Positions 6,952-22,404 of a DNA stretch of 32,000 nt are shown here, piece by piece (within the stretch, counting starts at the first letter, position 1; each line of letters begins with the position of its first letter). A program made the position numbers and the translations under genes. The stretch lies in assembly GCF_000179635.2 (NCBI RefSeq), contig NC_014833.1, positions 3,360,001-3,392,000 on the forward strand, written 5' to 3'. Below the pieces are notes generated by a model. That model worked only from the letters and a program-made list of their open reading frames with translations. It searched no databases and was not told the DNA's origin. The DNA comes from Ruminococcus albus 7 = DSM 20455 (GTDB taxonomy: Bacteria > Bacillota > Clostridia > Oscillospirales > Ruminococcaceae).

Positions 6952-6997
6952 TCTAAATTCTGGTTTGGTTTATCTTAGCAGTTGTATAAAATACAAT

Positions 6998-7027
6998 GCC
7001 CCGAAGCACTTTGAAGTGCTTCGGGGC
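6998..7027 (-). terminator. strong hairpin terminator between convergent genes, with a T-run only on the minus strand
   Basis: gccccgaagcac tttgaa gtgcttcggggc is a perfect 12-bp stem with a 6-nt loop. On the minus strand it is followed by attgtatttta. It may also stop the plus-strand GNAT transcript. Confidence 0.7.
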
Positions 7028-7070
7028 AAAACTTCTATATGAGTATCTGTTTTACGGCAGGGGCGGTATT

Positions 7071-7760
7071 TTATTTGCTTGTGTCACCGATGCCGTATTT
7101 ATCTTTCAGCCTTACGAATATTCTTTCTGCGGGCTTTACGAACAACACGAGGAATATGCAGTTCGATACCATATAGCTAACCGTGAACCATGCTGAGGTG
7201 AGGGTCAGCCCGAGAAATCTTTCGGGGGTGAATCCGCCGCCCAGCCATAACACGCTGCATATATCCATAAACACTGAATAACACGCACCTGCAGCCACGC
7301 CGAACACGCACAGCAGCAGGGGCTTTTTTTTCAGTTTACTTCCCACAAGACCTGCCAGCAGACCTATTATACCCCACACCATCATCTGGAAAGGAGTCCA
7401 TATCCCCTGGGTAAAGAAGAAATTTGATATCAGTGCTGTAAGTGCACCTATCATGAATCCCTGTTCAGCCCCTAGGTATATACCTGCAAGTATTATCACA
7501 GCCGCGCAGGGTTTGAAAGCGGGCAGAGGTGCGAATATTATCCTTCCTGCCACAGAAAGTGCCGTCATCACTGCTGTCAGTGCCACCTCGCCCGAAGCCG
7601 CTTCTCTCCGCTCGAACCTTGCGAAGAATATGCCGCATACAGCCACCGCAGCCGAACCTATCAGCCAGACCGCAGCCCTGTCCCTGAATATCACGCAGCC
7701 ACCTGCGATAAGTGCCATTGATCCTGTCAGCAAAGCCGCCTTCACCGACCTGCGCATCAT
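7071..7760 (-). CDS. ECF transporter S (substrate-capture) component, specificity unknown
   Basis: About 6 TM helices, small size, motif QGIWTPFQMMVWGIIG. ATGA overlap with the upstream ATPase gene. Last gene of a T / A-A' / S module. Confidence 0.75.
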   Translation of the reverse strand: MMRRSVKAALLTGSMALIAGGCVIFRDRAAVWLIGSAAVAVCGIFFARFERREAASGEVALTAVMTALSVAGRIIFAPLPAFKPCAAVIILAGIYLGAEQGFMIGALTALISNFFFTQGIWTPFQMMVWGIIGLLAGLVGSKLKKKPLLLCVFGVAAGACYSVFMDICSVLWLGGGFTPERFLGLTLTSAWFTVSYMVSNCIFLVLFVKPAERIFVRLKDKYGIGDTSK

Positions 7761-9343
7761 TCAACTCCCCCTGCCGCCAGCCGCAGCATCTCTGCAGTGT
7801 ATGCATTTTTGACCTCGCCGCGTGCTATCCTGCCTGCAGCGGTACTGAGATATCCTGCCTTCGCGAAAAATCCTGCCGCAGGCATCAGGCTCTCCACACG
7901 TCCGCCGCACAGTATACCACAGCTGTCTGCGGTTTCTGCCGCGTATTCCATATCATGGGTCACAGTCAGCACTGCCCTGCCCTCAGCGCAAAGCTTTCTG
8001 ACCATATCCCCTATACGCCTGCGTGCCTCAGCATCCAGACCCTTTGTGGGCTCGTCCAGCAGAAGTATCTCAGGCTCGCATAAAAGCACCCTGCCAAGAC
8101 CGCACAGCTGCATCTCACCGCCGCTGAGGTCATATGGGTGCATATCCCCGAGGTGTCCGCAGCCCATACGCTCAAGCATCTCATCAGCCCTGTCCTCAGG
8201 CTTTCCCATAGCCCTCAGTGCATAGATATAATCCTCGCGCACCGTCGGCTGAACAAACAGGTCTGCCGCCTCCTGCGGAAGCATCGCAGTAACAGCACCC
8301 TGCTTTTTCTGCCGTTTCCCGAAGACTTCCACCTTGCCCGAGTAAGCCCTGCAAAGTCCTGCAAGACACCTCAGCAGAGTGGTCTTGCCGCTGCCGTTAG
8401 CCCCGATGAGTGCCAGATGCTCTCCCCTGTGCAGAAGTATATCCGCCCCTGCCAGTATATCATCATCCTTGCGCCCCCACGCGAACCTTACTCCCTCAGC
8501 ACGCAAAGCATCCTCCCCGAAGGTCTTCCTTTCACCAAGAGGCACCTCTCTCTTATGAGGTATCTCAGCCAGCAGCCGCCTGCCCTCACGCACCGTCAGC
8601 GGTACAGGCTCATACCCTGCAAAAGCCCTTGCTGCCGCAGGCATAAAGCTCTCTGCCGCCTTTACGGCTGCTGTTTCACGGGGTGTACCGTCCGCAATTA
8701 TCCTGCCGTCTTCAAGGAATATCACCCTGTCACATTCTGCAAACAGCAGTTCGGTACTGTGCTCCGCAATTATCACCGTCATACCCGTTTCACGGTTAAG
8801 CCGAAGTATCAGGGCGCTCATATCCTCAGCCGTCACAGGGTCAAGTCGGCTGAAAGGCTCGTCAAGCAGAAGTATCTCAGGCTGCATGACAAGTGCCGCA
8901 CAAAGGCTCACCAACTGCTTTTCACCGCCCGAAAGCTCACTCAGTTTCCGCTCCGCAAGCTTTCCCAGCCCGAAACGGGTTATGGTTTCCGCCGCAAGCC
9001 GACGTACCTCCGCCGCATCAAGCCCTGCATTCTCAGGAGCAAACATTATCTCACCGCGCACCCTGTCACTCACAAAGCCGTCCTCGGGGGACTGTGCCGC
9101 ATACCCGACCTTCGGCTGAGGGCTCACTGCCTTCTCCCCGAATATCCTTATCTCCCCTGTCATATCGCCCCTCGGGGATATCTCAGGCTTCAGCAGTTTC
9201 AGCAATGTGGTCTTGCCGCAGCCCGAATGCCCCATAAGCATCACAAGCTCGCCCCTGCCTATCCTGATATCTATGTCCTGCAGTACAGGTGCATCAGCAC
9301 TGCTGTAACGAAACGTCAGTCCCTTGCAGTAAACAGCGTCCAT
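7757..9343 (-). CDS. energy-coupling factor transporter ATPase, fused duplicated A-A' protein
   Basis: Two full ABC cassettes: GHSGCGKTTLL / LSGGEKQ / LLLDEP and GANGSGKTTLL / LSGGEMQ / LLLDEP. Start placed at the internal ATG (MDAVYCKGL...) with ggagagg RBS. The tracked ORF extends to 9385. Confidence 0.9.
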   Translation of the reverse strand: MDAVYCKGLTFRYSSADAPVLQDIDIRIGRGELVMLMGHSGCGKTTLLKLLKPEISPRGDMTGEIRIFGEKAVSPQPKVGYAAQSPEDGFVSDRVRGEIMFAPENAGLDAAEVRRLAAETITRFGLGKLAERKLSELSGGEKQLVSLCAALVMQPEILLLDEPFSRLDPVTAEDMSALILRLNRETGMTVIIAEHSTELLFAECDRVIFLEDGRIIADGTPRETAAVKAAESFMPAAARAFAGYEPVPLTVREGRRLLAEIPHKREVPLGERKTFGEDALRAEGVRFAWGRKDDDILAGADILLHRGEHLALIGANGSGKTTLLRCLAGLCRAYSGKVEVFGKRQKKQGAVTAMLPQEAADLFVQPTVREDYIYALRAMGKPEDRADEMLERMGCGHLGDMHPYDLSGGEMQLCGLGRVLLCEPEILLLDEPTKGLDAEARRRIGDMVRKLCAEGRAVLTVTHDMEYAAETADSCGILCGGRVESLMPAAGFFAKAGYLSTAAGRIARGEVKNAYTAEMLRLAAGGVE

Positions 9344-10176
9344 TGAAGCCTCTCCTTTCCCAGTATAATAAGCGGCAGCATACATTCCGCAAGATATACC
9401 GCCGTCATAACGAGCTCATATCTTCCGAAGTCTATCGTCGGGAAAAACTCCGTTGCTCCGCCCATTGACGAAAGCACCAGACCTGCGGCTGTAAGCAGTA
9501 CCACCGCACCAATGGATACCATGTCCTTAGCCCTCAGTGCCCTCCTGTCAGAAAATCTCACGGGATGCGTGCCGTATCCACGGGCATTCATGCTCTGTGC
9601 CGCACCTGCAGCCGCCTCTGCCGACCAAGCCATGCAGGCAGTAAATACCGCCCCGACTTCTCCCAGCCGACCTGTAGGACTGTTCTCCCTGAAAAGCCCT
9701 GCACCGCGCTGCGCCTCGCTTATCCTTCTGTTTTTCTGTATCAGCCGCGGTATGAACCCGAGGGTCATACTGATAGTCATGGCAAGCCTCGGAGAATATC
9801 TCCCGAATATGCCCAGCATCTCACGCTCGTTCACAATACTTCGCATGACCGCCAGCCATACCCCCGCACCGCTCAGCGAAAGTCCAAGCTCCAGCCCGTA
9901 AAGCATGGATTCCAGCGTGTAGGGACGGTCATTCACAAAGAGCAGGACAGTCATTCCCCTGTGTGAGAATATGGGGTCAATAACAGCCGTAGCCGCACAT
10001 ATCACCAGTACACCTGCCGCCCATTTCAGCCCCCTGCGCCAGCCGTCATACAGCGCCATGCACATAAGCCCCGTCACTGTCCCGACACCTGCCGCGCAAA
10101 GTGACCTGGGGAACATTATCATCACCAGTATACCCACTACAGCCGCTATACGCGTCAGCGGCGCAAAACTCTTCAT
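9316..10176 (-). CDS. energy-coupling factor transporter transmembrane (T) component, CbiQ/EcfT family
   Basis: Polytopic membrane protein with the T-component coupling-helix motif ...SMNARGYG (Ala-Arg-Gly) and an upstream EAQRGAG. ATGA overlap with the upstream gene. Confidence 0.85.
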   Translation of the reverse strand: MKSFAPLTRIAAVVGILVMIMFPRSLCAAGVGTVTGLMCMALYDGWRRGLKWAAGVLVICAATAVIDPIFSHRGMTVLLFVNDRPYTLESMLYGLELGLSLSGAGVWLAVMRSIVNEREMLGIFGRYSPRLAMTISMTLGFIPRLIQKNRRISEAQRGAGLFRENSPTGRLGEVGAVFTACMAWSAEAAAGAAQSMNARGYGTHPVRFSDRRALRAKDMVSIGAVVLLTAAGLVLSSMGGATEFFPTIDFGRYELVMTAVYLAECMLPLIILGKERLQWTLFTARD

Positions 10177-10634
10177 CTGTCCGCCTCCCCGATAAAGCTG
10201 TCAACATATGTGAACACTATCTCGTCACCGCACTCGGGCTGATACTCGCCGCAGTTGATATCGGGGGCTGTACCGTTCACGGTGTATATCCAGCCGCTCT
10301 CAGCACCATAGTCAAATTCTTCCAGACCGCCTATACCGCTTATGTATACTGCCCTGCCGCCCTTGGTATCAAGGTCTATGCCCTCATACCTCAGCACTCT
10401 CGCGGCAACATCATATACGCTGTCACCGGAAACCAGTGCATATCTTCCCTCAAGGGAAATTCCGCCGTTCACCGCAGAGCTGTCCACCTTTATAGTGACA
10501 TACTCTCCGTCCTCTGTGACCTCAGTCGGGTGGAGCGCATAGTACTCCTCAGGGGTCTTTATATCCACAAAGAGGACAGCCGCTGTCAGTACAGCCGCCG
10601 CACCGCCTATTAATATTATATCCCCTGTTCTCAT
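10173..10634 (-). CDS. membrane-anchored DUF4430 domain protein (transcobalamin beta-domain-like)
   Basis: N-terminal TM anchor. C-terminal EEFDYGAESGWIYTVNGTAPDINCGEYQPECGDEIVFTY matches the DUF4430 signature (SGW-Y-VNG ... GD-I-F-Y). Confidence 0.8.
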   Translation of the reverse strand: MRTGDIILIGGAAAVLTAAVLFVDIKTPEEYYALHPTEVTEDGEYVTIKVDSSAVNGGISLEGRYALVSGDSVYDVAARVLRYEGIDLDTKGGRAVYISGIGGLEEFDYGAESGWIYTVNGTAPDINCGEYQPECGDEIVFTYVDSFIGEADR

Positions 10635-10655: not shown

Positions 10656-12467
10656 TCAATACAGCCCTCGCAGCCGCCGTATCAGACTTTTTATGCGCCC
10701 CTGTTTTTTAGAAGCCCTCAGTGCTTCCTCATAGAATCTCTTTGCCTTTTCCAAAGCCTTGTCATCGGGGGCTTTGTCGGAAAATCTCAGTTCCTCATAA
10801 GCCCTCTCGGATTCAGCGAACCGTGTGCCAAGCAGACCCTCTGCTTTCTCTGCCAGTACCTCGGGGGGAAGTCCGTGTAGTCCCAGCACCTCCTCCATAA
10901 GCTGTCTGCCCTGAAAATGATCAGCCTTCAGCGCCGCAGTATCATCATGCTTTCTCCGCAGTGACCACCTGTATGCCGCCCTTATCCTGCCTGCCGCCAA
11001 TGCCGCCGCAAGTATGCCAAAGGGCATCAGCATAAGCCTTCCCGAGGTTTTTGTGGTTTCCTTTTCGGCACGTATCTCTGCGGCTGTACGCGGCGGTGCC
11101 GAACGGTATATGATATCCTCCGCCGATGAGGTAAGTCCGTCACTTTCCTCACCGTCCGCGGAAGTCCCCTCGGGAAGAAGCGGAGAGCTTTCTTCATACT
11201 CCCGTGAAGCTTCAAACACTGACCAGCCTGCACCGTCGATGTATACCTCTGCCCATTCACGTTGCTCGCCGTCTGCAAGCCTTGCTTTGCCGCCTTCGGG
11301 CATACTCTTAAAATATATGCCCTTTACTGTTCTCGCGGCTATACCGCAGCTTCTCGCAATATCCACTGTCAGCTGCGCATGATCGCTGCTGTCAGCCGCT
11401 TTGTCCGAAAGCTCATTCCTCACAGCCGTCCTTACAGCTGCAAGTTTAACATCAAGGGGCTGTGTACCGTCCACAGGGTACTTCTCACGTAGCTTTTCTT
11501 CCTCATCAGCTGTCAGGCTGCCGTAAGCAGAATACACATACTCGCGGTAAAGTCCCTCGCGGTCAAGATATTCGCCTTCTTTCAACTGTGTCATCAGCCT
11601 GAATATCTCCTTATCTGCCTGCGGACACACCACGTATCCGCCTTCAGTATATTCCGAACATACTCCTGCAGGGATAAGATCTTCACCGACATTAACTTTC
11701 TCCATCGGCAGTACAGCGCCTGCAGATCCCATAAGCTGACCTTTCTGTGTCATCTCATCGAAGCCTGCTTCACGCAGGGTTTTCATTATCGCTGAACCTC
11801 TTGCATACTGCGCCTTGCTGCAGTGCGGCTCCTCGTAGCTCTCTGCCAGATAAAGGGTCATACCCTCTGCTGCCGATACTTCGCCTGCAGGCGGCAGTTC
11901 GGGCAGCCTTATCAGCACCGCAGGCAGGGCTATTACCGCCGCCCCCAGTGAAAGCACAGCACGCCTCATATCCTTTGCACCGAGTATAAGCACCGATACC
12001 GCCAGTGCGACCGCACCGCAGACAAGCAGGCTGCTGCCGCCGAAAAGCACGCTCCCCGCAGCAGCCGCTATCCCCCACAGTACCGCTGCCGCTCTCACTC
12101 CTGCGGCTGAATACACCGCACAGGATATGCCGCAGAAGATAAGCACTGCAATATAAGCACTGTCAGCCGCCCCTGCCACAGGCACATACATCAGACCGCG
12201 CTTTATCGTATACATATACTCAGCACTGTCGGCACAAAGGGCAAATTCTGCCCTAGCCCTGTCATGGAGGATACCTGCCGCCAGCCCGCCGCATAAGGCA
12301 GGCAAAAAGCCCCATATCCGTCCTAAACGCTCAGCGAGATATGCCGTCAGCACACACAGGAACAGAGCTGCCGCTCCAGCGTACAGCCCACCCCATATAC
12401 CTACTGTCAGTGCCGTCCCCACCCCGAAAACTACGGGTGCGGAGATATACGTTCTCTTTTCTTCCAT
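10656..12467 (-). CDS. transglutaminase-like polytopic membrane protein (TgpA-like) with DUF4129-like C-terminal region; catalytic triad apparently substituted
   Basis: About 6 N-terminal TM helices. Core ...ARSCGIAARTVKGIY...REWAEVYIDGAGWSVFEAS aligns to the transglutaminase core (GIPAR ... HAWAEVY..GW..FDP). A further TM helix and a helical C-terminal tail follow. Sits downstream of MoxR and DUF58. Confidence 0.8.
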   Translation of the reverse strand: MEEKRTYISAPVVFGVGTALTVGIWGGLYAGAAALFLCVLTAYLAERLGRIWGFLPALCGGLAAGILHDRARAEFALCADSAEYMYTIKRGLMYVPVAGAADSAYIAVLIFCGISCAVYSAAGVRAAAVLWGIAAAAGSVLFGGSSLLVCGAVALAVSVLILGAKDMRRAVLSLGAAVIALPAVLIRLPELPPAGEVSAAEGMTLYLAESYEEPHCSKAQYARGSAIMKTLREAGFDEMTQKGQLMGSAGAVLPMEKVNVGEDLIPAGVCSEYTEGGYVVCPQADKEIFRLMTQLKEGEYLDREGLYREYVYSAYGSLTADEEEKLREKYPVDGTQPLDVKLAAVRTAVRNELSDKAADSSDHAQLTVDIARSCGIAARTVKGIYFKSMPEGGKARLADGEQREWAEVYIDGAGWSVFEASREYEESSPLLPEGTSADGEESDGLTSSAEDIIYRSAPPRTAAEIRAEKETTKTSGRLMLMPFGILAAALAAGRIRAAYRWSLRRKHDDTAALKADHFQGRQLMEEVLGLHGLPPEVLAEKAEGLLGTRFAESERAYEELRFSDKAPDDKALEKAKRFYEEALRASKKQGRIKSLIRRLRGLY

Positions 12468-12481: not shown

Positions 12482-13405
12482 TCATATACCGTCTATTATC
12501 GTGATACGCTCATCGTTTATGTCCGTATTTACGGCGAATGCGATGATATTACCTTCATCCGCCCTGCTGCAAAGCTTTTCGAGAAAGCTCACGCCAACAG
12601 ACTTATACATCGGGAAATGCAGTACCTCATACATCACAGTTTCACTGTCCGCATTCTCCGTATATCTGAAGTCATCCTCACCGTAAGGCAGTACCAGTCC
12701 GTACTCCACCCCACGCAGGGACAATACCTGTGCCAGACCGCACATAGCCTCTGCCAGTACTCCTGCCCTGTCACCTGCGCCATAGTCCGCAAACAGCCAC
12801 AGCTTGTCCGATCTTTCGGGGATATAGGTGTTTATGTACGGCTTGCCGAAACGGTGTGTAAGTTTCAGGTTTACCTTGCGCAGCGGCTCATCGGGACGTG
12901 CCTCTCTTGCACCGTCAGGTTCATTCTCCCCCACAGCAGCCTCCAGCATATCGTACACCTCAGCCGCAGGAGGATCGGGCATAACAGTTACATAGCCCTC
13001 CGCACAGCATACAACAGACCGCTTTGTTATACCGGGTATATCCTTTCTGTAAAAGCTCATATACCTTATCAGCAGACCGCCGCAGTTATCCTGCGCAGGC
13101 AGCACATATCTGCGTTCATCTCTTATGTCCACATCAAGGGCTGTCCTTTCACCTGTGACTATATTCTCGCAAAGCACCCTGCCGCGCAGACGTTTCTTTC
13201 CTGCGAATATCAGTACCGGAGATCCGCCCTTGTTTATGCATACCCTCTCATAGCTGACATTTACTTCGCCCTTGTCCGCCAGATTTTCAGCCGCAGCCGC
13301 GATCAGCACTGCCAGCATACCTGCCGCGAAGTACAGACCTATTTCATTGAAAAGACCTGCCGCCAGCGCCGCCGCAAAGCACAGCGCGAATATCAGCGTC
13401 CTCAC
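12482..13405 (-). CDS. DUF58 domain protein (vWA-like partner of MoxR)
   Basis: GTG start in a GTGA overlap with moxR. Two N-terminal TM helices. GAREARPDEPLRKVNLKLTHRFGKPYINTY aligns to the DUF58 motif G-R-Y--GD--R-I-W----R. Classical position between MoxR and the transglutaminase-like gene. Confidence 0.75.
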   Translation of the reverse strand: MRTLIFALCFAAALAAGLFNEIGLYFAAGMLAVLIAAAAENLADKGEVNVSYERVCINKGGSPVLIFAGKKRLRGRVLCENIVTGERTALDVDIRDERRYVLPAQDNCGGLLIRYMSFYRKDIPGITKRSVVCCAEGYVTVMPDPPAAEVYDMLEAAVGENEPDGAREARPDEPLRKVNLKLTHRFGKPYINTYIPERSDKLWLFADYGAGDRAGVLAEAMCGLAQVLSLRGVEYGLVLPYGEDDFRYTENADSETVMYEVLHFPMYKSVGVSFLEKLCSRADEGNIIAFAVNTDINDERITIIDGI

Positions 13406-14343
13406 AGGTTCTCCTTGTTTTCGGGGTAAGGCAGTTCTTTGAGTATTTCTTCTAGTATCCCCTCGGGAGTCTTACCTGAGGCACGTGCCTCCCTTGTCAG
13501 CACCAGTCTGTGCGCACATACGGGTATAAAGCAGGTACGTATATCACGGGGCACCACATGATCTCTGCCGTCAAGATAAGCCCCTGCCTTTGCCAGCCTG
13601 AAAAGTGCCAGCGCACCTCTCGGGGATATGCCGCCCTCGGTGTATCTGCTGTCAGCCGCCTTCTGAATAAGGTCACACAGATAGTCCGTCACTTCTTCAC
13701 TGACAGTCACCTTGTTTATCTCAGCCCTGATAGCATCGAGGTCTTCCGCATTACACACCTGCCTGACACTGTCCAGCGGGTCGGAATCCTTTCTATCCGT
13801 AATAAGCCTTTTCAGTGCTTCCCTGTCAGGGGCACCAAGCCTGAGCCTTTCCATGAATCTGTCAAGCTGTGAAAGCGGTATAGCCGAGGTGCCTGCTGTA
13901 CCCGTAGGATTCTGGGTAGCTATCACCGTAAAGTAAGGCGAAAGCTCATGGGTAATGCCGTCTACCGTAAGACCGCGTTCTTCCATGGCTTCAAGCAGTG
14001 CCGCCTGAGTCCTGCCGGATGTCCTGTTCAGCTCGTCTGCCAGCAGAAGGTCTGTCATAGCCGCACCCTCATGGTACACGAACTCGCCCTTGCCCTCATC
14101 GTAAGCCGAATAACCCGTTATATCCGAAGCTGTAGTATCAGGTGTCATCTGTATCCTCCTGAACCTGAGACCCATAGTCCTGGTAAGCGCCAGCGCAAGG
14201 GTAGTCTTGCCCGTACCGGGAGTATCCTCCAGCAGCACATGACCGCCTGCCAGCACACCTGCTATCAGCAGTTCAACGGTATCGTCCTTGCCGATTATGA
14301 CCTTTGTCAGTTGTTCCTTTATTTTCAGGGGAATGGTCTTCAT
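13402..14343 (-). CDS. MoxR family AAA+ ATPase
   Basis: Walker A LLEDTPGTGKTT and Walker B LLADELNR. RTSGRTQAALLEAMEERGLTVDG and ATQNP motifs are typical of MoxR/AAA_3. Confidence 0.9.
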   Translation of the reverse strand: MKTIPLKIKEQLTKVIIGKDDTVELLIAGVLAGGHVLLEDTPGTGKTTLALALTRTMGLRFRRIQMTPDTTASDITGYSAYDEGKGEFVYHEGAAMTDLLLADELNRTSGRTQAALLEAMEERGLTVDGITHELSPYFTVIATQNPTGTAGTSAIPLSQLDRFMERLRLGAPDREALKRLITDRKDSDPLDSVRQVCNAEDLDAIRAEINKVTVSEEVTDYLCDLIQKAADSRYTEGGISPRGALALFRLAKAGAYLDGRDHVVPRDIRTCFIPVCAHRLVLTREARASGKTPEGILEEILKELPYPENKENL

Positions 14344-15515
14344 CTGTTCTTTTCCTTTCTTCTTCGCATAAGGATGCCGCCCGATACAGCCGCTATCCCG
14401 AAAACAGCTATCACCGCAGATACAGAAGCCGTAACTTTTTTCCCTTTCGCAGAGCTTTTTTTCACAGCAGGCGCTGTGGTGTTCCTGTTTTTAGCGGCAG
14501 CCATAGCATCAAGCGTTGTCCTTTGAGGCTTTACTGCACTTCCTTCGTTCATATCGTACACAGACCTTTCGCCCGACCTCAGTCTTTGCAGGCTGCAAAG
14601 GGCTATCAGCGCCTGAGATGATGCAAGCTCGCTGCTGCTTTCGCCCTTTTTGTGAGCGAAGCCGCCGTCATCATTGGCAAAGCTTATCATAGCATCTGTA
14701 AGCCATGCGAACCTTTCATCAGTGTCGGGGTCTATATCAAGGCAGCACAGCGCACATATCATCTGCGCTGTACTCTCACAATTGTCGGCACTGCTTTTGT
14801 TCTCAGCCAGATATCCAAGGGCTGCAGCTATGGTGCCCTCAGCTTCCTCACAGTTTCTGTAAGGTGAAAGCGCCTGAAGTGCCATAGCAGTTATGTCGAT
14901 ATCGCTCCTGCCGTCACCTGCCGTGAGCGAATAGCCGCCGTCGGAGTTCTGTGCAGAGATAATGGTATCTATCATATCTTTCCTGTCGGGGTCTGCTCCC
15001 TCGGGCATCTTCCAGTCACAGCTGTCAACAGCTATCAGTCCCCATATCCATGCGTTCAGCCCCTGCTTGTCCAGTGACCTGTTCTCTCCGCGGAGATAGG
15101 TGCCGCACCCCAGCAGGTCAACACCCGATACATCAGCGGGGTCAGCCCCGAGGCAAAGCCCTGTGAGCACTGCCCTATGCCAGTCCGTAGGGACTATCTT
15201 CCCGATGCTTTTCTCGTCCGAATAATCCTCCTGTATACGTTTCTCCCATGCCGCACGGTACTCGGCTGTATCATCCTCCAGCCCTGCTCTTACCGCGCCT
15301 ATCGCCAGCCAGTCGGAGCTGTCGAACCCGGCATCCTCTGCTATACTGCCCGAAAGAAGGCTGTCCTTTTCGGGTATACCGTTCTTATTCTTTTCAAATG
15401 TGATGATGCCCCTTGCATAGCCCTCTGCCTGACCGGTCTCCAGTGCTGATGCACTTACAGGCACAAGCAGCATCACTGCTGCCGCGGATAATGCCGCAAG
15501 TCTTTTCAACATCAT
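14340..15515 (-). CDS. secreted alpha/alpha-toroid protein (prenyltransferase / squalene-oxidase repeat family; transcobalamin alpha-domain-like) with C-terminal TM anchor
   Basis: Signal peptide (AAAVMLLVPVSASA). Repeated Q-x-x-DGG-[YF] motifs (SAQNSDGGYS, ANDDGGFA). Helical-repeat signatures (DITAMALQAL, SSQALIAL). C-terminal TM helix plus RRRKEK stop-transfer. Confidence 0.75.
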   Translation of the reverse strand: MMLKRLAALSAAAVMLLVPVSASALETGQAEGYARGIITFEKNKNGIPEKDSLLSGSIAEDAGFDSSDWLAIGAVRAGLEDDTAEYRAAWEKRIQEDYSDEKSIGKIVPTDWHRAVLTGLCLGADPADVSGVDLLGCGTYLRGENRSLDKQGLNAWIWGLIAVDSCDWKMPEGADPDRKDMIDTIISAQNSDGGYSLTAGDGRSDIDITAMALQALSPYRNCEEAEGTIAAALGYLAENKSSADNCESTAQMICALCCLDIDPDTDERFAWLTDAMISFANDDGGFAHKKGESSSELASSQALIALCSLQRLRSGERSVYDMNEGSAVKPQRTTLDAMAAAKNRNTTAPAVKKSSAKGKKVTASVSAVIAVFGIAAVSGGILMRRRKEKNR

Positions 15516-17419
15516 TCACCTCCAACATCATTTCCAAGGTCAAGGGAGAATGCCAGCGTAACACGCTCGCCGTCGGCAAATACTGCCGAGGACATAGCGT
15601 ATGAAGGCTTTCTTCCGTTGCGGCTGTAAAGCCAACCCGAGCCCGGTGCAAAATCAAATTCACCGAGAGAATCGGCATCACTGCTGTTGTTGGGCGTTAC
15701 TCCCGCAGCTGCAAGATATGCCCTTGACTCCTCCGTCAGTGCAGCATCTGCAAATCTGCCCTGCATACGTATCCTGTCAAGATACCTGCTGCTGTCACTG
15801 CCACGTGAGGATACCTCAAAACCGTTTTCTTCAAGGAACCTCAGCATTGTATCAAAGCCGTTTTCGCCCTCCAGTACGGGAAAGCTGTCATCTTCACAAA
15901 GCGTACCCAGCCCGACGGCATCAGCTTTTACGGATACAGCTATCCTGCCTACCTCAGTACCTTTCTCAACAGCATCGCAGTTTATTTTATAGAAGAACTC
16001 TGATATCCTGCCTGCCCTGTCTTTCAGCTTTACAGTTACAGCATTCTCACCTGCACGCAGGGAAAGTATATATCCCGTACAGGTGCTGTCCTCCCATTTC
16101 CGCGGTACCTTTGTGCCGCCGCATATCACCTCGGCACTGTCCGAATACAGCCGCACTCCGTCGCAGTCAACTGCCCTGAAAGTCAGTGTATACGCACTGC
16201 CCTTTACCGTTATACCGTCGGTAAGGCTAATGCTTTCAAACCGCGGAAGTCTTTCCTCTGCTGCCGGCGGAAGAGATATTACGGTGAATGTCTGCTCAAA
16301 ACCGTCTTTTCCGTCACGTACCCACAGACGTATCTTATTGTTGCCCTCATTCAGTTTTGCGGTATAATCGCTTTCACCGCGAAGTGCTTTGTCGTTTACC
16401 AGCACTATCAGCTTCGGGGAATTCCCTCCCACTGCCTTTGCGCTGAAGGTGATACTGTCGGAATACACTGTGATATCAGAAAGGTCTGTTATCAGCGAGA
16501 GTTCTCGTACAGGTATATATGTAACAGAAAAATCAAGGACAGTATCCCCCGAGGACAGTTTTATCATGTTCTCGCCCTCGTTAAGGTTAACGGTGAATAC
16601 ATCCCTGCCTTCGACTGTCCTGCCGTTCAGCCATACCTCCATGCCGTCTTCGCAGGAGGCTGTAAAGGTGAATACGGGATCGTAAACATCGCAGTCTTTA
16701 AGGTCTGTGACTATCTCCGAAGCAGGAGATGACAGGTACACCGTATAATCGCGGAAAGCCCTGTATATCCTGTTTTCGCCGTCCTTATAGGTACAGCTTA
16801 CCCTGAGGGAGTTAGCACCCTCTCTCAGGCGCACCCTGCCTGCGAACCCTGTCATAAGAGAACCGTTGACCTCAACATCACAGCGGACAACTTCAAGATC
16901 ATCTGCAAGATGAGTTACAGTGAAAAAGTAGGTACTGTCACTGACGGTCTCACCGTCCTTTATCGAGGCAGTGAAGTACTCACGGTCGGCTTGTCTGCCG
17001 TCGGGGGTCACCTTTGCAGGTTCGGTGGCTTCGTCGGGGACCTGCACTGTCTGTACCGAGGCTTTGCTGTCATCCGCAGAAGATGTATCATCCTCTCCCG
17101 TGACGATGAACGATGCAGGTACATCTGCCGAAGAAGCATCACTGCCGCTGTCAACGGGTGCTGTATCGTTATCGGGTATGCTGTCGGGCACTGAGCTTTC
17201 ATCGGTACGGGAGCTGGTATCTTCCCTTTCGGAGCTGCTGTCCCTGCCCTTCAGCCCTTCGGCTGATATCTCGGGCAGCATGACTTCACGCTGAGTTATG
17301 CCGACAGATATATCCTCACGGGGAGCACTGCGGTAAAAGTGCGCAGCAAAGCAGACAGCCCCTGCTGTAAGCACAGCAGCTGCCGCAGATACTATCAGAC
17401 TTTTCCGCTTTTTTTCCAC
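15512..17419 (-). CDS. membrane-anchored surface protein: Ser/Asp-rich linker, four Ig-like repeats, C-terminal DUF4430 domain
   Basis: GTG start with gggagg RBS. N-terminal TM helix and an S/D/T-rich low-complexity stretch. Four repeats of about 90 aa, each ending L-EG-N-I-L...F-V-Y. C-terminal LGEFDFAPGSGWLYSRNGRKP...ADGERVTLAF is paralogous to 10173-10634. Confidence 0.75.
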   Translation of the reverse strand: MEKKRKSLIVSAAAAVLTAGAVCFAAHFYRSAPREDISVGITQREVMLPEISAEGLKGRDSSSEREDTSSRTDESSVPDSIPDNDTAPVDSGSDASSADVPASFIVTGEDDTSSADDSKASVQTVQVPDEATEPAKVTPDGRQADREYFTASIKDGETVSDSTYFFTVTHLADDLEVVRCDVEVNGSLMTGFAGRVRLREGANSLRVSCTYKDGENRIYRAFRDYTVYLSSPASEIVTDLKDCDVYDPVFTFTASCEDGMEVWLNGRTVEGRDVFTVNLNEGENMIKLSSGDTVLDFSVTYIPVRELSLITDLSDITVYSDSITFSAKAVGGNSPKLIVLVNDKALRGESDYTAKLNEGNNKIRLWVRDGKDGFEQTFTVISLPPAAEERLPRFESISLTDGITVKGSAYTLTFRAVDCDGVRLYSDSAEVICGGTKVPRKWEDSTCTGYILSLRAGENAVTVKLKDRAGRISEFFYKINCDAVEKGTEVGRIAVSVKADAVGLGTLCEDDSFPVLEGENGFDTMLRFLEENGFEVSSRGSDSSRYLDRIRMQGRFADAALTEESRAYLAAAGVTPNNSSDADSLGEFDFAPGSGWLYSRNGRKPSYAMSSAVFADGERVTLAFSLDLGNDVGGE

Positions 17420-17558
17420 GATGAGCTACCTCCCGAAAAAGCATAAAGACCTGCGCCCACGGTCTGAGAAAGTAAACAGTCCATGTGACGCAGATCTGTT
17501 TTTTATAGGTCAAAGTTTATGACATACCCCTGAACGGGATGTGCATGACAAAGAGAGA

Positions 17559-19436
17559 TCATCTCTCCTTGTTTATAAGCTTCTTGCCCTTTATATTTGC
17601 TGCTGTTAACGTGATATCACTGACATTCACCTTGCCGTCTGCATTCACATCAGCCGCATTGAAGCTGTACTTATCTATCACTTTCCTGCTCTTTATATTA
17701 GCTGCAACTATTGCCAGATCAGTGATATTCACTTTGCCGTCACCGTTGACATCGCCTTTATGAGCAAGTGCGCGCTTATACTGATCATCATTTTCTGCAA
17801 CGAGAACGTCTATATCCTGTGATACAGAAGGTGCTTTGCCGTTACCGTTATACAGACCGTAACTGAAGCTTGCTGTGAGGACTTCATCATCGGCACTGAA
17901 CTTATCAACGCTGAATGTAAGATCCTTGCCTGTGATATCTCCTATGGTCTTCACGGGACCGTTTTTGATATCAACAGTATACTCCTTATCGGCAGGTGTT
18001 TCATCTGCCTTGAAGACGAAGGTCTTTACACCATTGGGATGTATGGTGATATCGGGGCACTGGATATCGGGATCGGATATTCCGCTGCCTATTGCAAGGA
18101 TATTGAATGAATCGTTGCGTATATAGAGAAGTCCTGTTTCCTCGTCATATACAGGATCAACTGCGCAGTACTGTGCGTGCTCACCCTGGGGTCTGAACAC
18201 AACAGGAGGACAGGTATGCTTTTTGCCTGCAAGGTCTGTTTCCTCTACAGTATCGGCAGGAGCGGTCATGCCTGCTTTATCCCTGAGCATACGTACAACG
18301 CCCGAAGTACCGTTTTCAACATAGTATATAACATTATAGCCTTCCTTGTCAACGCCTGCGAAAACGCCCTTAGCCTTGCATTCTGCGGAAGTTTCAACGG
18401 CATAAGCAGGTTCAAGCTTTATCTTGCCTTCGGCCTCAACGATATCGAAAACACCGATGTGGGAACCGTTATAATCGTCCCAGCCTGTTCCCTGGAAAGT
18501 AACGTATACCCTGCCGTTTTCAACTATCGGGGTCGAGGTGCAGGTGAAACCATTCGGGCCAAGAAGAGAAGCTGTGATCCCGTAGCCGTAGACCTCACCG
18601 TTAGTGTCGATCAGATGCACACCGCCTTCACGCGAGGTATAGTAGATCACACCATCCTTGAGTACCAGCTTGCTGCGGATATCATCATGTGCGGTACCGA
18701 GCTTACTGATGAGCTCGCCTGTTGCATCGTCAACGGTGACGGTGCGGTTATTTTCGCCTTCCTCGTTAGCGCCTTCTTTGCCGTTCTCGACACCGAAGGT
18801 CACCTTACCGTCGTATACAACAGCGCTTGTCCAGTAGAAGCCGCCCGCATTGGTGTACTCCCATTCTGCAGTCTTTTCCTCATCTGTCTTTTCGGTATCC
18901 CCATCGGCTGCGCTTACCTTTACGAAATCGGCATCTGCCTCATCGGAGTTCCAGAAGCCTGTATAGAGATAGCCGTTTTCAACTACGATATCGCAGGTGG
19001 GCTTGCCGCCGTTCTTGTTTGTGTATACCCACAGTGATGTAAGGGTCTCGGCATCGAAAGCCTGTATCTTGCCGCCGTCGAGAGCCATGAACACTTTGCC
19101 GTCAGCATAAACGGGGCCTTTGGTAGCGTACATAGCTTTACCTGCCATTTTGCCGTTCAATACCTCTTTGCCTGTGAACTTATCTATCTTCTTGATATTA
19201 TCTGCCGAACAGATATAGAGATATCCGTTATCAGCAACAGTGAAGCCTGTGGGGGAATCCGACCACATCATCTTGTCTTCGCCTATCTGATCCGCCCAGT
19301 ACAGGACATTGTCATCAGCCTTGGTGAGATCGGGCGAAAGTGTCTTATCGGCAGCAAACACGTTTAATGCCGCTGCATTTACAGCCAGTATAGATGCGCA
19401 GAACGCACTGAGTATTTTTACAGTTGTTTTTTTCAT
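17559..19436 (-). CDS. secreted PQQ-like beta-propeller repeat protein with C-terminal type-I dockerin
   Basis: RBS ggaga and signal peptide (ALNVFA/AD). PQQ_2-like blades (GKVFMALDGGKIQAFDAETLTSLWVY). C-terminal duplicated calcium-binding segments GDVNGDGKVNITDLAIVAANIK and ADVNADGKVNVSDITLTAANIK form the dockerin. Confidence 0.85.
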   Translation of the reverse strand: MKKTTVKILSAFCASILAVNAAALNVFAADKTLSPDLTKADDNVLYWADQIGEDKMMWSDSPTGFTVADNGYLYICSADNIKKIDKFTGKEVLNGKMAGKAMYATKGPVYADGKVFMALDGGKIQAFDAETLTSLWVYTNKNGGKPTCDIVVENGYLYTGFWNSDEADADFVKVSAADGDTEKTDEEKTAEWEYTNAGGFYWTSAVVYDGKVTFGVENGKEGANEEGENNRTVTVDDATGELISKLGTAHDDIRSKLVLKDGVIYYTSREGGVHLIDTNGEVYGYGITASLLGPNGFTCTSTPIVENGRVYVTFQGTGWDDYNGSHIGVFDIVEAEGKIKLEPAYAVETSAECKAKGVFAGVDKEGYNVIYYVENGTSGVVRMLRDKAGMTAPADTVEETDLAGKKHTCPPVVFRPQGEHAQYCAVDPVYDEETGLLYIRNDSFNILAIGSGISDPDIQCPDITIHPNGVKTFVFKADETPADKEYTVDIKNGPVKTIGDITGKDLTFSVDKFSADDEVLTASFSYGLYNGNGKAPSVSQDIDVLVAENDDQYKRALAHKGDVNGDGKVNITDLAIVAANIKSRKVIDKYSFNAADVNADGKVNVSDITLTAANIKGKKLINKER

Positions 19437-19495
19437 TTTTCATTCTCCGTTCTTGTTTAAGATTTCAGCATTTTTTAAATGCCGATGATAAAGTA

Positions 19496-19524
19496 ATTAT
19501 ATCACATAGCTTTTATTTTTTCAA
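19496..19524 (-). promoter_or_regulatory. sigma-A type promoter of the minus-strand operon
   Basis: On the minus strand: TTGAAA, 17 nt spacer, TATAAT. The -10 element is about 60 nt upstream of the ATG at 19436. A small AT-rich palindrome gcattt-ttt-aaatgc lies in the short leader. Confidence 0.6.
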
Positions 19525-19897
19525 TAGTATATACCACCCAAACAACACGCGCGGTATATCAATAAGCTATGTGCAGGTATAGTTTTAAGCTATGCCGCAG
19601 ATGATCTTACGCTGTCTGATGTGCTTTACCGTGTGTAAAAATTTAATGTCTATTCAGTTGTCAAGATGCAGATATCCCCTTATACAGTATGACACGTCAC
19701 TTCATATCCCGCAGTCATAGTCAGCATCAGCCTGCCATCGTGCGCACAAGGGGACGATATATGTAAACGGCACTTATGAGGTGCCGGGATCTTTGGCTTT
19801 ATACAGAGGGGCATTTCGGAAAGTATCTGTGTACTTACCAAAAAGGTGATCGGCGGGTCTGCCTGATAAACCCCTTCTATATACAGCGAAAAACTGT

Positions 19898-19927
19898 CAA
19901 AAGTTGTACGTTTTTGTACAACTTTTG
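19898..19927. other. perfect 12-bp inverted repeat (orphan hairpin) in a long intergenic region
   Basis: caaaagttgtac gttttt gtacaacttttg. On the minus strand it is followed by acagttttt (weak U-tract). No annotated gene ends here. Confidence 0.4.
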
Positions 19928-20078
19928 CAGAAATATGTCCGAGTTAAAAGAAAAATCATTTGTTTATACAAAACGGACGAATGATGTCAGGCAAAAATGA
20001 CGATGATATGACCGGATATTGGTGAGTGCCGAAAAATCGGGGCAGCGCAGGACTTTTCAGATTTATCAGAAAAAGGTA

Positions 20079-20107
20079 TTGAAAAACAGGGAAATATGTG
20101 CTATAAT
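20079..20107 (+). promoter_or_regulatory. sigma-A type promoter of the SLOG/LCP-like/PII-like operon
   Basis: TTGAAA, 17 nt spacer, TATAAT. It overlaps the first codons of the tracked ORF (20096), so the real start must be downstream. Confidence 0.6.
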
Positions 20108-20143
20108 AATTTTAAGTGTTATCGGAAGGCGGTGACTGCAATA

Positions 20144-20722
20144 ATGAACGGAATGAAGATCATCTCAAAGGATGAATTTATCACTGACAAAGCATCCACC
20201 TGTTGTTTCACGGGACACCGTCGGCGCGACCTGCCATTTGGCGGAGATACCTCAAAGCAGGGAGTCAGGAATCTGATAAGCACTATACATCTGCTTTGCC
20301 GTGAGGCTTACAGCAGAGGCATCCGTACATTCATAACGGGAATGGCGGAGGGCGCTGATATGATCTGCGGATCGGTCATCATGGACATAATAGGCAGCGG
20401 AGAATGTCCCGGGACGAGGCTAGTATGTGCACTGCCCTACGAAGGACACATCAGGGAGATAAAGCTGCCGCGGGACAGGTATGTTTACAGTCTGCTGATG
20501 CAGGCGGCATCTGCCGTAGTGGTGACCGGAGATATCGGTGACAGCGGACGTTACCGTGAAAGGAACAGGTTCATGGTGGAGAATTCGTCGGCGCTGATAG
20601 CAGTATACAAAGAAAAGCAGCGAGGATCGGGCACTTTGCAGACCATAAACATGGCAAAGCGCAGCGGTCTTGATATACACATTATAGACCTCGACAAGAA
20701 CCCGCAGTTCTACTGCGGATAG
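20144..20722 (+). CDS. SLOG family / DUF1273 protein (YpsA-like)
   Basis: CCFTGHRRRDLPFGG, GMAEGADMICG and a C-terminal GSGT motif are typical of DUF1273. Start set at the first ATG downstream of the promoter, with ggaaggcgg upstream. Confidence 0.8.
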   Translation: MNGMKIISKDEFITDKASTCCFTGHRRRDLPFGGDTSKQGVRNLISTIHLLCREAYSRGIRTFITGMAEGADMICGSVIMDIIGSGECPGTRLVCALPYEGHIREIKLPRDRYVYSLLMQAASAVVVTGDIGDSGRYRERNRFMVENSSALIAVYKEKQRGSGTLQTINMAKRSGLDIHIIDLDKNPQFYCG

Positions 20723-20761
20723 GACGGGTATACAAAATCAAAAACAGTAAGGAGAAAATAT

Positions 20762-21718
20762 ATGTCATCTGCCGTAAAGAAAAAAAGAAGAAAGAAAAGG
20801 TCACAGGCTCCGGTCGCCCTTGTATACGTGGTCACGGTACTGATATTCATGGGACTGATCTCAATGCTTGCGATATATATGCTAAGATCCTACGGACTGA
20901 TAGGCACCGAAGAAAAGGAAGAAACTTCCGTTTCTGTACAGACCTTCAACGATCTGTTTGCGAGGGTGAACAGCAACGGTGATCTGGCAGACATGGTATT
21001 CATGAGGATAGACCCGGTGAACAACAGCATACTTGTAGTTCCCATGCCTGCGGAAACGCTCAACAAGACGAATAATATGAAAATGGGTGATATATACAAG
21101 ATATCGGGCATGGCAAGCGTAAAGACCGCTGTGGAAGATACTCTCGGCATGAGAGTGGACAACTACGCTTCGCTTTCAAACGATTCTTTTGAAAGAGTGT
21201 TCGATATGTACGGCGGCATAACCTACAAAGCACCCGAGGAGCTGTACTATCTATCAAAGAAAAACAACGATAATGACATCTCGATACTGAAGGGTGAGCT
21301 TGCTACGCTTGGCGGCAGACAGATCAGGCTGCTGACTCAGTACCCCGTATACTCAAACGGAAAACAGGGCAACAACGAGTTCCTTGGCGAGGCTGTAGAA
21401 TCACTGATTAACACTATGTTCCAGCAGGATTACATAACCAAGGACAATCTGGACAATATATACAACATCGTTACAACAAACAGCGACACTGACATGAACC
21501 AGGACGACTTCAAACTGCAGAAGTCCTACATCAAGGATATGCTCACAAGCAAAAAGTCACCTGCAGAGAAACTGCTTCCCACAGGAACATGGGGCGATAA
21601 GGATTCGTCATTCAAGATAAACGAAGACTTTATCACTGAACTGAAAGAGAAAGCAGCAGAAACGATACCTGAAGCCGGAGCATCTTCCTCCGAGGGTGCT
21701 GCAGAATCAAAACAGTAA
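20762..21718 (+). CDS. LytR-CpsA-Psr (LCP)-like membrane-anchored protein, apparently degenerate
   Basis: RBS aaggag. Lys/Arg-rich N-terminus plus a TM helix. ADMVFMRIDPVNNSILVVPMPAETL and VDNYASLSNDSFERVFDMYGGITY align to LCP core blocks (rsDtimlv..d....v.l.SiPRDt; idyyv.v.f.gf..lvd.lGGv.v). Confidence 0.6.
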   Translation: MSSAVKKKRRKKRSQAPVALVYVVTVLIFMGLISMLAIYMLRSYGLIGTEEKEETSVSVQTFNDLFARVNSNGDLADMVFMRIDPVNNSILVVPMPAETLNKTNNMKMGDIYKISGMASVKTAVEDTLGMRVDNYASLSNDSFERVFDMYGGITYKAPEELYYLSKKNNDNDISILKGELATLGGRQIRLLTQYPVYSNGKQGNNEFLGEAVESLINTMFQQDYITKDNLDNIYNIVTTNSDTDMNQDDFKLQKSYIKDMLTSKKSPAEKLLPTGTWGDKDSSFKINEDFITELKEKAAETIPEAGASSSEGAAESKQ

Positions 21719-21757
21719 ATGACGGCACAGCAGATATACTAAGGATAGTGATGACGA

Positions 21758-22183
21758 ATGAAGCTCATGGTCTTGATACTGAATAAAACAGATGCGCTGG
21801 AATACCTGCTTGAAGGACTTTCGGCGGCAGGCATAGGCGGTGCTACGATAATACCTTCTTCGGGCATGGCGATGACGCTTTCAAAAATGAATTCGAGCTT
21901 TCTGAGTTCTTCGATACGCAGTATGTTCAGCGGCGAAGAGGACGACAACAAGACCATAATATCTGTTATAGAGGATGAGCAGCTGGAACTTGCCAGAAGA
22001 GTGGTATACAACACCGTGGGCGATCTTTCACAGCCGAACACGGGAATAATGTTCACTATACCGCTGGATTTTGTCGAGGGCAGACGCAAGCGCCGCGCAT
22101 CGATACCGACGGAGGAGAGCATTAAGGATAACAAAGGATCCAAGGAAGAAAATGGCAAAGATAAAGGCAGCAAGGGCACGTAA
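21758..22183 (+). CDS. PII-like fold protein with basic disordered C-terminal tail
   Basis: MKLMVLILNKTDALEYLLEGLSAAGIGGATIIPSSGM parallels the PII N-terminus (MK-i-aIi----l--v--aL---G--G-T------G). The tail is RRKRRASIPTEESIKDNKGSKEENGKDKGSKGT. Confidence 0.5.
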   Translation: MKLMVLILNKTDALEYLLEGLSAAGIGGATIIPSSGMAMTLSKMNSSFLSSSIRSMFSGEEDDNKTIISVIEDEQLELARRVVYNTVGDLSQPNTGIMFTIPLDFVEGRRKRRASIPTEESIKDNKGSKEENGKDKGSKGT

Positions 22184-22236
22184 ACGGTAAAAAGGACGGG
22201 CGATTGTAAATTTCCTGTTAATATTCCGGGCAGCCC

Positions 22237-22265
22237 TTGCAATAATATACAATTTGTAGTATAAT
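22237..22265 (+). promoter_or_regulatory. sigma-A type promoter of the rimP-nusA-infB operon
   Basis: TTGCAA, 17 nt spacer, TATAAT. Confidence 0.6.
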
Positions 22266-22284
22266 ATATGCAATAGGCTTGACG

Positions 22285-22322: not shown

Positions 22323-22404
22323 TATAGACCAAAGTTAACAGTGACCCGACCCCCGGAAGGGCGTTGACGGTGCTGTATACTGAACGATCGGGAGGGCAGA
22401 TGAT

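Follow-up and report, generated by a model that had tools for sequence, protein, structure and literature searches.

The window examined here is a 32,000-nucleotide stretch of the genome of Ruminococcus albus 7 = DSM 20455 (contig NC_014833.1, positions 3,360,001 to 3,392,000 of the forward strand; positions below are those of the window unless a locus is named), and our subject is the first gene of a ten-gene operon within it (gene 1; Table 1), which encodes a secreted protein that joins a beta-propeller to a dockerin. We propose that this protein is the extracellular, surface-tethered part of a system for scavenging and importing corrinoids, that is, compounds of the vitamin B12 type, and from genome comparisons and structural models we put the probability of this reading at roughly 0.6. 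Among gut and rumen Clostridia this system is found widely, though its distribution is patchy.

The link to vitamin B12 is seen most directly in relatives of the gene 1 propeller. In all 8 propeller-first loci outside the R. albus clade the propeller gene is immediately preceded by a cobalamin riboswitch (RF00174; 38-117 bits), and in a locus where gene 2 comes first (L022) the riboswitch lies upstream of gene 2; it is present in 9/9 relatives' loci with a visible cluster start. Of 121 genomes sampled evenly across the order, 3 have the propeller; since the family is so patchy, the survey was made instead on the 49 genomes behind the fetched loci. In at least 32 of these, RF00174 shares contig and strand with a propeller gene and precedes it by at most 25 kb, the remaining cases being mostly at contig edges, although many of the 49 are related metagenome-assembled genomes, so that counts among them are not independent and are descriptive only. 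Three riboswitch-controlled Ruminococcus relatives (L015, L017 and L066) also keep the ten-gene order of the window.

The products of the operon fit the same frame. DUF4430, the domain of gene 7, makes up the C-terminal part of transcobalamins (PMC4350170, PMC1796856). Two relatives (L028 and L071) have it fused to the propeller, and the DUF4430-like C-terminal region of gene 2, which matches the same open reading frames (ORFs) in relatives as the DUF4430 gene does, is fused to the propeller in two others (L021 and L058). Gene 7 is the only Pfam DUF4430 match in the source genome (G000; 4,482,087 bp in 5 contigs, 99.99% complete). The last three genes encode an energy-coupling factor (ECF) transporter, and when its S component is compared with solved structures the best match is chain A of 6FNP, an entry for ECF-CbrT (E 1.9e-6, over nearly the full length); ECF-CbrT is a vitamin B12 importer (PMC5997447). 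The organism would need a route for corrinoid uptake, since a cobalamin-dependent methionine synthase of the MetH type, which has B12-binding domains, is encoded in the source genome (contig C3, about 50207-52486), and CbiD was not found there. Burroughs et al. (2007) had predicted scavenging of B12 or of B12 precursors for operons with SLBB, toroid and CbiO-CbiQ genes, and noted one SLBB-propeller fusion, in which they took the propeller to be a possible tether (PMC1796856). A preliminary description of the window had offered BtuG, a surface propeller that captures B12 in Bacteroides, as an analogy for the gene 1 protein. The B12 frame of that analogy is supported by the riboswitches, the DUF4430 fusions and the CbrT-like S component, but homology with BtuG is not, the propeller here having eight blades and resembling BamB.

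The gene 1 protein had been described from the DNA as a 625-residue protein with a signal peptide, PQQ-like blades, a duplicated dockerin segment and no glycoside hydrolase or carbohydrate-binding motif, and Pfam searches together with an AlphaFold model confirm this. Its only Pfam matches are PQQ_2 (PF13360; residues 61-143, 46.7 bits against a cut-off of 27.6, E 4e-12) and Dockerin_1 (PF00404; residues 560-610, 45.7 bits against a cut-off of 22.9, E 7e-12), and no family of glycoside hydrolases, carbohydrate esterases, polysaccharide lyases or carbohydrate-binding modules was found in it by Pfam at E <= 0.01. The N-terminus is a Sec-type signal with a lysine-rich start, a hydrophobic core and a VFA/AD cleavage site, and we regard it as lacking a lipobox because its cysteine lies inside the hydrophobic core and phenylalanine occupies position -1. 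The model was built on 18 homologues and has a predicted local distance difference test score (pLDDT) of 83 and a predicted template modelling score (pTM) of 0.80; in the signal region, residues 1-33 have pLDDT below 50, with a helix at 6-26. By structure alignment, residues 38-452 match eight-bladed BamB with Z 35, the designed eight-bladed protein Cake8 over 313/320 residues (root-mean-square deviation, rmsd, 2.1; Z 34.4) and YxaL with Z 32.7, and BamB, Cake8 and Tako8 are aligned over their full length (Z 33-35). Because this segment superposes on BamB, Cake8 and YxaL, we count eight blades, a number that the preliminary description had left to structure prediction.

Behind the propeller the model has an immunoglobulin-like (Ig-like) sandwich, at the position where relatives have a Big_3 match. 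The dockerin contains two calcium-binding loops of 12 residues each, DVNGDGKVNITD and DVNADGKVNVSD, with aspartate or asparagine at positions 1, 3, 5, 9 and 12, and helices at 571-581 and 605-615 in the model; it is a canonical two-segment type I dockerin, and the cohesin genes found in the clusters of many dockerin-type relatives hint, indirectly, that it may bind a cohesin. Sequence searches of the propeller and of the gene 7 DUF4430 protein against solved structures gave nothing significant. Across Clostridia families the propeller retains 33-40% identity over about 450 residues, with about 40 invariant positions, many of them aromatic or charged; when mapped by hand, the invariant residues lie mostly in loops of one face.

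Gene 1 is transcribed with its nine downstream genes, from about 19500 to about 7000, as shown by continuous RNA contigs. Logan contigs from four RNA-seq runs of four studies were placed on 6800-20300, and in each run one contig of 12.1-12.9 kb covers the whole unit, the starts being at 7019, 7044 and 7345 and the ends at 19468, 19479, 19898 and 19927. For two runs (X9 and X10) the promoter-side limits of the contigs, 19468 and 19479, fall shortly after the predicted -10 box in the direction of transcription; the X10 contig begins at 7044 beside the terminator, and in both runs the depth upstream of the promoter drops about ten-fold, from 47-69 to 5-7. Gene 1 had been called the first gene of a transport operon, and this is borne out: nine co-oriented genes follow it, namely six non-transporter genes (genes 2-7) and then the importer, whose T component, A/A' ATPases and S component are encoded together. 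Read-through of the 139-nt gap behind gene 1 (17420-17558) had been in question, and a transcript ending at 17550 would have separated the gene from the others; the contigs continue unbroken across the gap in all four runs, with no end at 17550.

The association of the propeller with these genes extends well beyond R. albus. A word-based search returned 17 full-length homologues (45-99% identity), 17/17 with a dockerin. Gene order is kept in three of the more distant ones (45-54% identity), in two across ten genes and in P0009 as far as gene 2, where its contigs stop. Overall, the complete ten-gene order is seen at identities of 45-70%. An exhaustive HMMER search with the propeller as the only query gave 406 cluster representatives at E <= 1e-30 and, at the looser E <= 1e-3, 1304; in most of them the match is a 33-40% identical domain within surface proteins of 1000-3500 residues. 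Neighbourhoods were counted in the best 80 of 394 loci, one genome per species being scanned, and as many contigs are short these counts are lower bounds: within 10 kb of the propeller there is a gene-2 homologue in 70/80 loci, MoxR in 62/80, the toroid in 60/80, DUF4430 in 33/80 and an ECF-T gene in 24/80. The concern raised earlier, that orthologues might never be linked to the downstream genes, is thus removed by the gene-2 count. All but one of the 80 loci are labelled Bacillota or uncultured Clostridia/Clostridiales. The exception (L068, CAVEPP010000029.1) is labelled Alloprevotella sp. (Bacteroidota), yet its propeller-dockerin gene nests among Clostridia beside L070, and its label probably reflects a binning error rather than transfer. 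A separate 3-kb contig (L104, P0021) encodes a 616-residue propeller-dockerin protein of 41% identity with a divergent HTH_3 regulator gene upstream; no RF00174 was found upstream of P0021 on this contig, which is too short for context.

In the model that we favour, the gene 1 protein would be exported by the Sec pathway, as its signal peptide suggests, and by comparison with relatives would be held at the surface through its C-terminal dockerin. The propeller would capture a corrinoid, or a corrinoid-loaded partner, outside the wall and pass the corrinoid to membrane-anchored transcobalamin-like parts (the C-terminus of gene 2, the toroid of gene 3 and the DUF4430 protein of gene 7), which would hand it to the CbrT-like ECF importer. 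The hairpin behind gene 1, which is conserved, could increase the proportion of gene 1 transcript. That the propeller binds corrinoids is suggested by its conservation, the riboswitch control, the DUF4430 fusions and the parallel with BtuG, BtuK and BtuGH (PMC13616437). The model assigns no part to the MoxR-DUF58-transglutaminase genes. The preliminary description had also read the promoter-proximal position of gene 1 as a sign that its product is the outermost ligand-capture tier; we do not retain this argument, because gene order varies in relatives and the position is therefore uninformative.

The role of the dockerin is best understood from what occupies its place elsewhere. Among the C-terminal modules of the 80 relatives there are 36 dockerins, 4 S-layer homology (SLH) regions, 4 sortase signals, 6 membrane tails and 25 other or fn3 modules, with 5 proteins cut; the count of 36/80 comes from a rebuilt dockerin model, a narrower hidden Markov model (HMM; 17 close orthologues) having given 17/80. 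Because the same slot holds a sortase signal, SLH repeats or a membrane tail in relatives, the dockerin is most simply an anchoring device. Of the earlier view that it tethers the protein to a cohesin scaffold at the cell surface, the tethering is thus supported, while the scaffold is not. In a maximum-likelihood tree of the propeller domain the gene 1 protein belongs to a clade of eight Ruminococcus sequences that has full support and in which every member has a dockerin, and the sister sequence (L014) and the next lineages (L015, L017 and L066) end in a serine-rich linker, NPxTG, a hydrophobic stretch and a K/R tail, that is, in a sortase signal. At least six changes of the dockerin label are needed on this tree. 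The window dockerin shares 55-64% identity with numerous dockerins elsewhere in the source genome, and only 33-40% with those on the propeller proteins of other lineages. Its recognition residues at positions 10, 11, 17 and 18 are I/T/A/A and V/S/A/A, and the R. albus dockerin consensus of PMC4081043 fits them. Since the outgroups end in a sortase signal and the dockerin resembles those of its host, these sequences indicate that the R. albus clade swapped a covalent wall anchor for the host's own dockerin type. The dockerin, being of the general host type, therefore probably binds the receptor of the other R. albus dockerin proteins.

For lineages other than R. albus, gene content suggests that the cluster itself encodes the partner cohesin. 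Of the 28 dockerin-type genomes, 16-17 have a cohesin on the propeller contig no more than about 20 kb away, as have 1-2 of the 21 others, and in two genomes (G002 and G003) all 5 Pfam cohesins and all 3 dockerins of the genome are in the propeller locus. These are non-cellulosomal gut Clostridiales with a single B12-uptake cohesin-dockerin locus (L095, G003:C10:24000-43900; L096 and L097, G002:C144). The G003 locus opens with a cobalamin riboswitch and a 1506-residue cadherin-like/propeller/dockerin protein, and continues with a 676-residue two-cohesin protein, a 544-residue cohesin protein, a 229-residue cohesin-plus-dockerin adaptor and a 360-residue protein that combines a cohesin with Listeria-Bacteroides repeats. 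Next come a gene-2-like protein, MoxR, DUF58 and a transglutaminase-like protein, and after these a 1554-residue propeller-dockerin protein, the toroid, DUF4430 and the ECF genes. The arrangement in G002 is the same, on a contig that stops before the position of the riboswitch, and in G001 and G004 riboswitches immediately precede genes for dockerin and cohesin proteins. A 1525-residue G004 protein encoded behind a cobalamin riboswitch (L099:13078-17652, contig C33) has an N-terminal cohesin match together with Big_2, Cadherin-like and propeller domains. The genome scan gives this match 27.5 bits, whereas in the protein scan it reaches 21.7 bits and stays below the cut-off; if genuine, it would mean that the propeller protein can double as a scaffold.

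The situation in R. albus is different in that no cohesin gene was found in the R. albus 7 cluster, and the cluster-type cohesin proteins of relatives matched the source genome by their dockerin parts only. The literature describes a single cohesin protein for R. albus 7 and reports that R. albus 8 has none (PMC4081043); the published cohesin-plus-dockerin protein of R. albus 7 (419 residues) scores 24.5 bits (PMC4081043, PMC4300822). A borderline cohesin was also seen in a 333-residue protein with a Cadherin-like domain (G000:C1:1877092-1878093, L101:3092-4093, minus strand; 23.3 bits in the protein scan, 25.9 in the genome scan), whose gene adjoins a polysaccharide deacetylase gene and which could be a second R. 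albus 7 cohesin beyond the published Rumal_2328. Gene 2 was considered as a hidden cohesin and rejected, its 50 best matches in the PDB being generic Ig arrays and S-layer proteins with no cohesin among them. The proposal that the protein is displayed on a cellulosome scaffold is therefore not supported: no multi-cohesin scaffoldin was recognised, the source genome having 1-2 weak cohesins and the cluster none, and neither of the marks of a cellulosome component, cargo with carbohydrate-active enzymes or carbohydrate-binding modules and multi-cohesin scaffoldins, was found.

Several observations weigh against the corrinoid reading as applied to R. albus. The source genome has 59 Pfam dockerin matches and two weak matches to the cohesin profile PF00963 (25.9 and 23.7 bits), and R. 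albus 8, which lacks a cohesin, keeps an orthologue of gene 1 (L010), so that cohesin-mediated tethering may not apply. The BamB/YxaL fold is best known for protein-protein contacts. Assembled RNA contigs hide local depth and do not prove a single transcript. RF00174 was not found in the window at the Rfam gathering score, at 17300-20200 at E <= 5, in 7 orthologous loci of the R. albus clade or in the whole source genome, and B12 control of the R. albus copy is accordingly without support. This last point, together with the expression of the unit in the RNA-seq runs, would also be expected if the cluster of the R. albus clade had been retargeted to another cofactor or tetrapyrrole-like nutrient, or were constitutive for another purpose, in which case the B12 reading could not be transferred from the relatives. 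One R. albus 7 RNA-seq study did add B12 to the cells, its link to the runs used here being unconfirmed (PMC4300822). We consider such retargeting improbable, as the ten genes stand in the same order as in the riboswitch-controlled relatives, the S component is still closest to CbrT, and a genome that has a MetH-type enzyme and in which CbiD was not found contains no second DUF4430 locus.

The fold itself invites other explanations, of which one deserves serious thought even if we think it unlikely: the propeller might be a structural platform that binds the DUF4430, toroid or Ig-array proteins, or a wall polysaccharide, arranges or spaces the complex, and leaves corrinoid binding to the transcobalamin-like parts. 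Its best structural matches, BamB and other interaction propellers, are in keeping with this, and BamB acts by scaffolding; the G004 polypeptide appears to carry a cohesin of its own, given the scores quoted above, and surface tethering by the SLBB-fused propeller and Ig domains is what Burroughs et al. proposed (PMC1796856). On the other hand, the sequence identity and the number of invariant positions in the family are high for a mere spacer, many of the invariant residues, when placed by hand, lie in the loops of one face, tethering is already done by separate dockerin, SLH or sortase modules, and the Bacteroides propellers BtuG and BtuK1, though unrelated seven-bladed folds, bind B12 (PMC13616437). 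The constancy of MoxR, the second most constant neighbour of the propeller, could instead point to a ternary conflict or signalling system of MoxR, a von Willebrand factor A-like (vWA-like) protein, here DUF58, and a beta-propeller, with no part in nutrient uptake, and the window MoxR does match PF20030 (bpMoxR) weakly (E 1.6e-8). We give this very little credence, because AAA_3 scores 158 bits against 34 for bpMoxR, the propeller, with its signal peptide and surface anchor, is not cytoplasmic, and the clusters lie behind B12 riboswitches together with ECF importers. An enzyme akin to dehydrogenases dependent on pyrroloquinoline quinone (PQQ), mounted on a cellulosome-type complex, would account for the eight blades and the PQQ_2 match, and PQQ alcohol dehydrogenases are among the lower structural matches; this is scarcely credible given that the quinoprotein dehydrogenase profile PF01011 has no match in the gene 1 protein (E <= 0.01), that the best matches, BamB and YxaL, are non-enzymatic and that the gene context is one of uptake and not of redox chemistry.

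Returning to the corrinoid reading, the locus and its relatives form a candidate capture machine made of the propeller, transcobalamin-like domains and a CbrT-like importer, often with private cohesins and dockerins. A bolder version, which we put forward only tentatively and at somewhat less than even odds, is that gut and rumen Clostridia have a dedicated cohesin-dockerin complex for corrinoids under B12-riboswitch control, that the propeller is a new cobamide-binding or transfer module convergent with BtuG and BtuK, and that the R. albus copy has been plugged into the receptor system of the other dockerin proteins of R. albus. Cohesin-dockerin assembly, known from cellulosomes, would then appear from these gene clusters to serve vitamin scavenging also. 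The operon type was predicted in 2007; what appears new is the combination of a proposed extracellular cobamide relay with cohesin-dockerin assembly. In the library that was searched we found no paper linking cohesin or dockerin to cobalamin uptake, and none on this propeller family or naming an R. albus dockerin-propeller protein. According to a 2026 review, the capture of cobamides outside the cell by Gram-positive gut bacteria 'remains entirely uncharacterized' (PMC13616437). If the proposal is correct, vitamin scavenging would be a second major use of the cohesin-dockerin pair, and the system a Gram-positive counterpart of the extracellular B12 relay of Bacteroides. Competition for B12 shapes gut and rumen communities, so that a new uptake route in abundant Clostridia would be ecologically relevant. 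The locus also bears on an old puzzle of R. albus, whose strains have 58-90 dockerin proteins each and at most one cohesin protein (PMC4081043): the replacement of a sortase anchor by a dockerin on a protein outside fibre digestion argues that R. albus dockerins are general surface anchors.

The features of the operon are collected in Table 1. Gene 2 has a Pfam match to Cadherin-like/Glucodextran_B, and its model consists of a transmembrane helix (residues 7-30), a disordered linker, four Ig-like domains of about 80 residues each and the DUF4430-like end. The spacer between genes 1 and 2 is structured: a 176-nt stretch around it folds strongly (z = -5.7), and a stem at the place of the 17448-17497 hairpin recurs in 8 orthologous spacers, with compensatory changes in 4/8 pairs. 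The RNA contigs read through this hairpin, which may be a partial terminator or a stabiliser that sets the ratio of gene 1 to the downstream genes.

Table 1. Features of the ten-gene operon and of the gene 1 protein (window positions)
Feature	Position	Strand	Basis
Strong promoter-like site, TTGAAA, 17 nt, TG-TATAAT	19496..19524	-	11/12 matches, extended -10
Gene 1 (P0001), secreted propeller-Ig-dockerin protein, 625 aa	17559..19436	-	ORF, Pfam and model
Signal peptide, residues 1-28	19353..19436	-	predicted cleavage after VFA, judged by eye
Eight-bladed BamB/YxaL-like (PQQ_2) beta-propeller, residues 38-452	18081..19325	-	Pfam, AlphaFold model, structure alignment
Ig-like beta-sandwich, residues ~460-548	17793..18059	-	strands in model
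Type I dockerin and linker, residues 556-625, two Ca-binding segments	17562..17771	-	PF00404 and model helices
11-bp hairpin over gene 1 stop codon	17548..17572	-	minimum-free-energy structure
Hairpin 17448-17497 then U-rich run, just upstream of gene 2 ribosome-binding site	17437..17497	-	folding
Gene 2, membrane-anchored Ig-array protein, DUF4430-like C-terminus	15512..17419	-	Pfam and model
Gene 3, prenyltransferase-like alpha/alpha toroid	14340..15515	-	Pfam
Gene 4, MoxR AAA+ ATPase	13402..14343	-	AAA_3, E 1e-46
Gene 5, DUF58-like, 307 aa	12482..13405	-	no Pfam match here; orthologues match DUF58 weakly
Gene 6, transglutaminase-like (Transglut_core)	10656..12467	-	Pfam
Gene 7, DUF4430 protein	10173..10634	-	Pfam
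Genes 8-10, ECF transporter	7071..10176	-	Pfam and nearest solved structure
Gene 8, T component (CbiQ)	9316-10176	-	Pfam
Gene 9, fused A/A' ATPase	7757-9385	-	double ABC_tran with ECF_ATPase_1 and _2 matches
Gene 10, S component	7071-7760	-	ECF-ribofla_trS/ECF_trnsprt
Strong intrinsic terminator	6997..7028	-	14-bp stem, 9 GC pairs, T run

The surroundings of the operon show some further features. The G+C content is 0.50-0.57, with a strongly negative GC skew, over 7000-19000, against 0.40-0.48 in the flanks, and this compositional step may reflect acquisition by transfer. The divergent neighbours at 20096-24487 (YpsA-like and LytR-CpsA-Psr genes, then rimP-nusA-infB) are kept in the orthologous loci L003 and L004, and the operon therefore occupies a stable chromosomal site in the R. 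albus clade. Upstream of the promoter, a perfect 12-bp inverted repeat at 19898-19939 is common to many other RNA contigs; it looks like a short repeated genome element, because the loose ends of those contigs enter unrelated sequence.

Among known systems, BamB of Escherichia coli and YxaL of Bacillus velezensis share the fold of the gene 1 propeller (Z 33-35, rmsd 2.2-2.4 over about 320 residues), but at 16-17% identity, and differ from it in context, in lacking the Ig-like and dockerin domains added here, and in predicted role. The SLBB (DUF4430)/toroid/CbiO/CbiQ operons of Burroughs et al. (PMC1796856) are of the same operon type and include the SLBB-propeller fusion in Clostridium; the words dockerin, MoxR and transglutaminase occur 0 times each in that text, which describes no cohesin-dockerin parts and does not present the propeller as a near-constant core gene. 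ECF-CbrT of Lactobacillus delbrueckii (6FNP, PMC5997447) is comparable in that its chain A is nearest to the S component, which is accompanied here by its own T component and A/A' ATPase, although the S match is a distant one and the operon has seven further genes for surface, MoxR-type and other proteins. With the R. flavefaciens cellulosomes, the R. bromii amylosome and non-cellulosomal dockerins (PMC4081043, PMC4611034, PMC4300822) the system shares a canonical type I module and, in relatives, adaptor-like cohesin-plus-dockerin proteins and multi-cohesin proteins. It differs in that the cargo is not a carbohydrate-active enzyme, in that R. albus has no recognisable scaffoldins, and in that the genes of relatives lie in clusters behind a cobalamin riboswitch (G001, G003 and G004).

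The closest parallel in proposed function is with BtuG, BtuK1 and BtuGH of Bacteroides thetaiotaomicron (PMC13616437, PMC8941943), which are likewise surface-exposed beta-propellers encoded in B12 uptake loci; in BtuGH the B12-binding domain BtuH is joined to the propeller, much as relatives of the gene 1 protein join DUF4430 to theirs. BtuG has seven blades (PMC13616437), whereas the window propeller has eight, is of the BamB/PQQ_2 type and has no detectable sequence relation to it. BtuG is lipid-anchored and works with the TonB-dependent transporter BtuB, while the present protein has a dockerin, replaced in relatives by a sortase signal or SLH repeats, and is paired with an ECF importer in a Gram-positive envelope. 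BtuG binds B12, and by analogy the window propeller may do the same, its conserved loop residues being no more than suggestive of this. For both, notwithstanding these differences, the proposed scheme is capture of the vitamin outside the cell followed by hand-over to a transporter.

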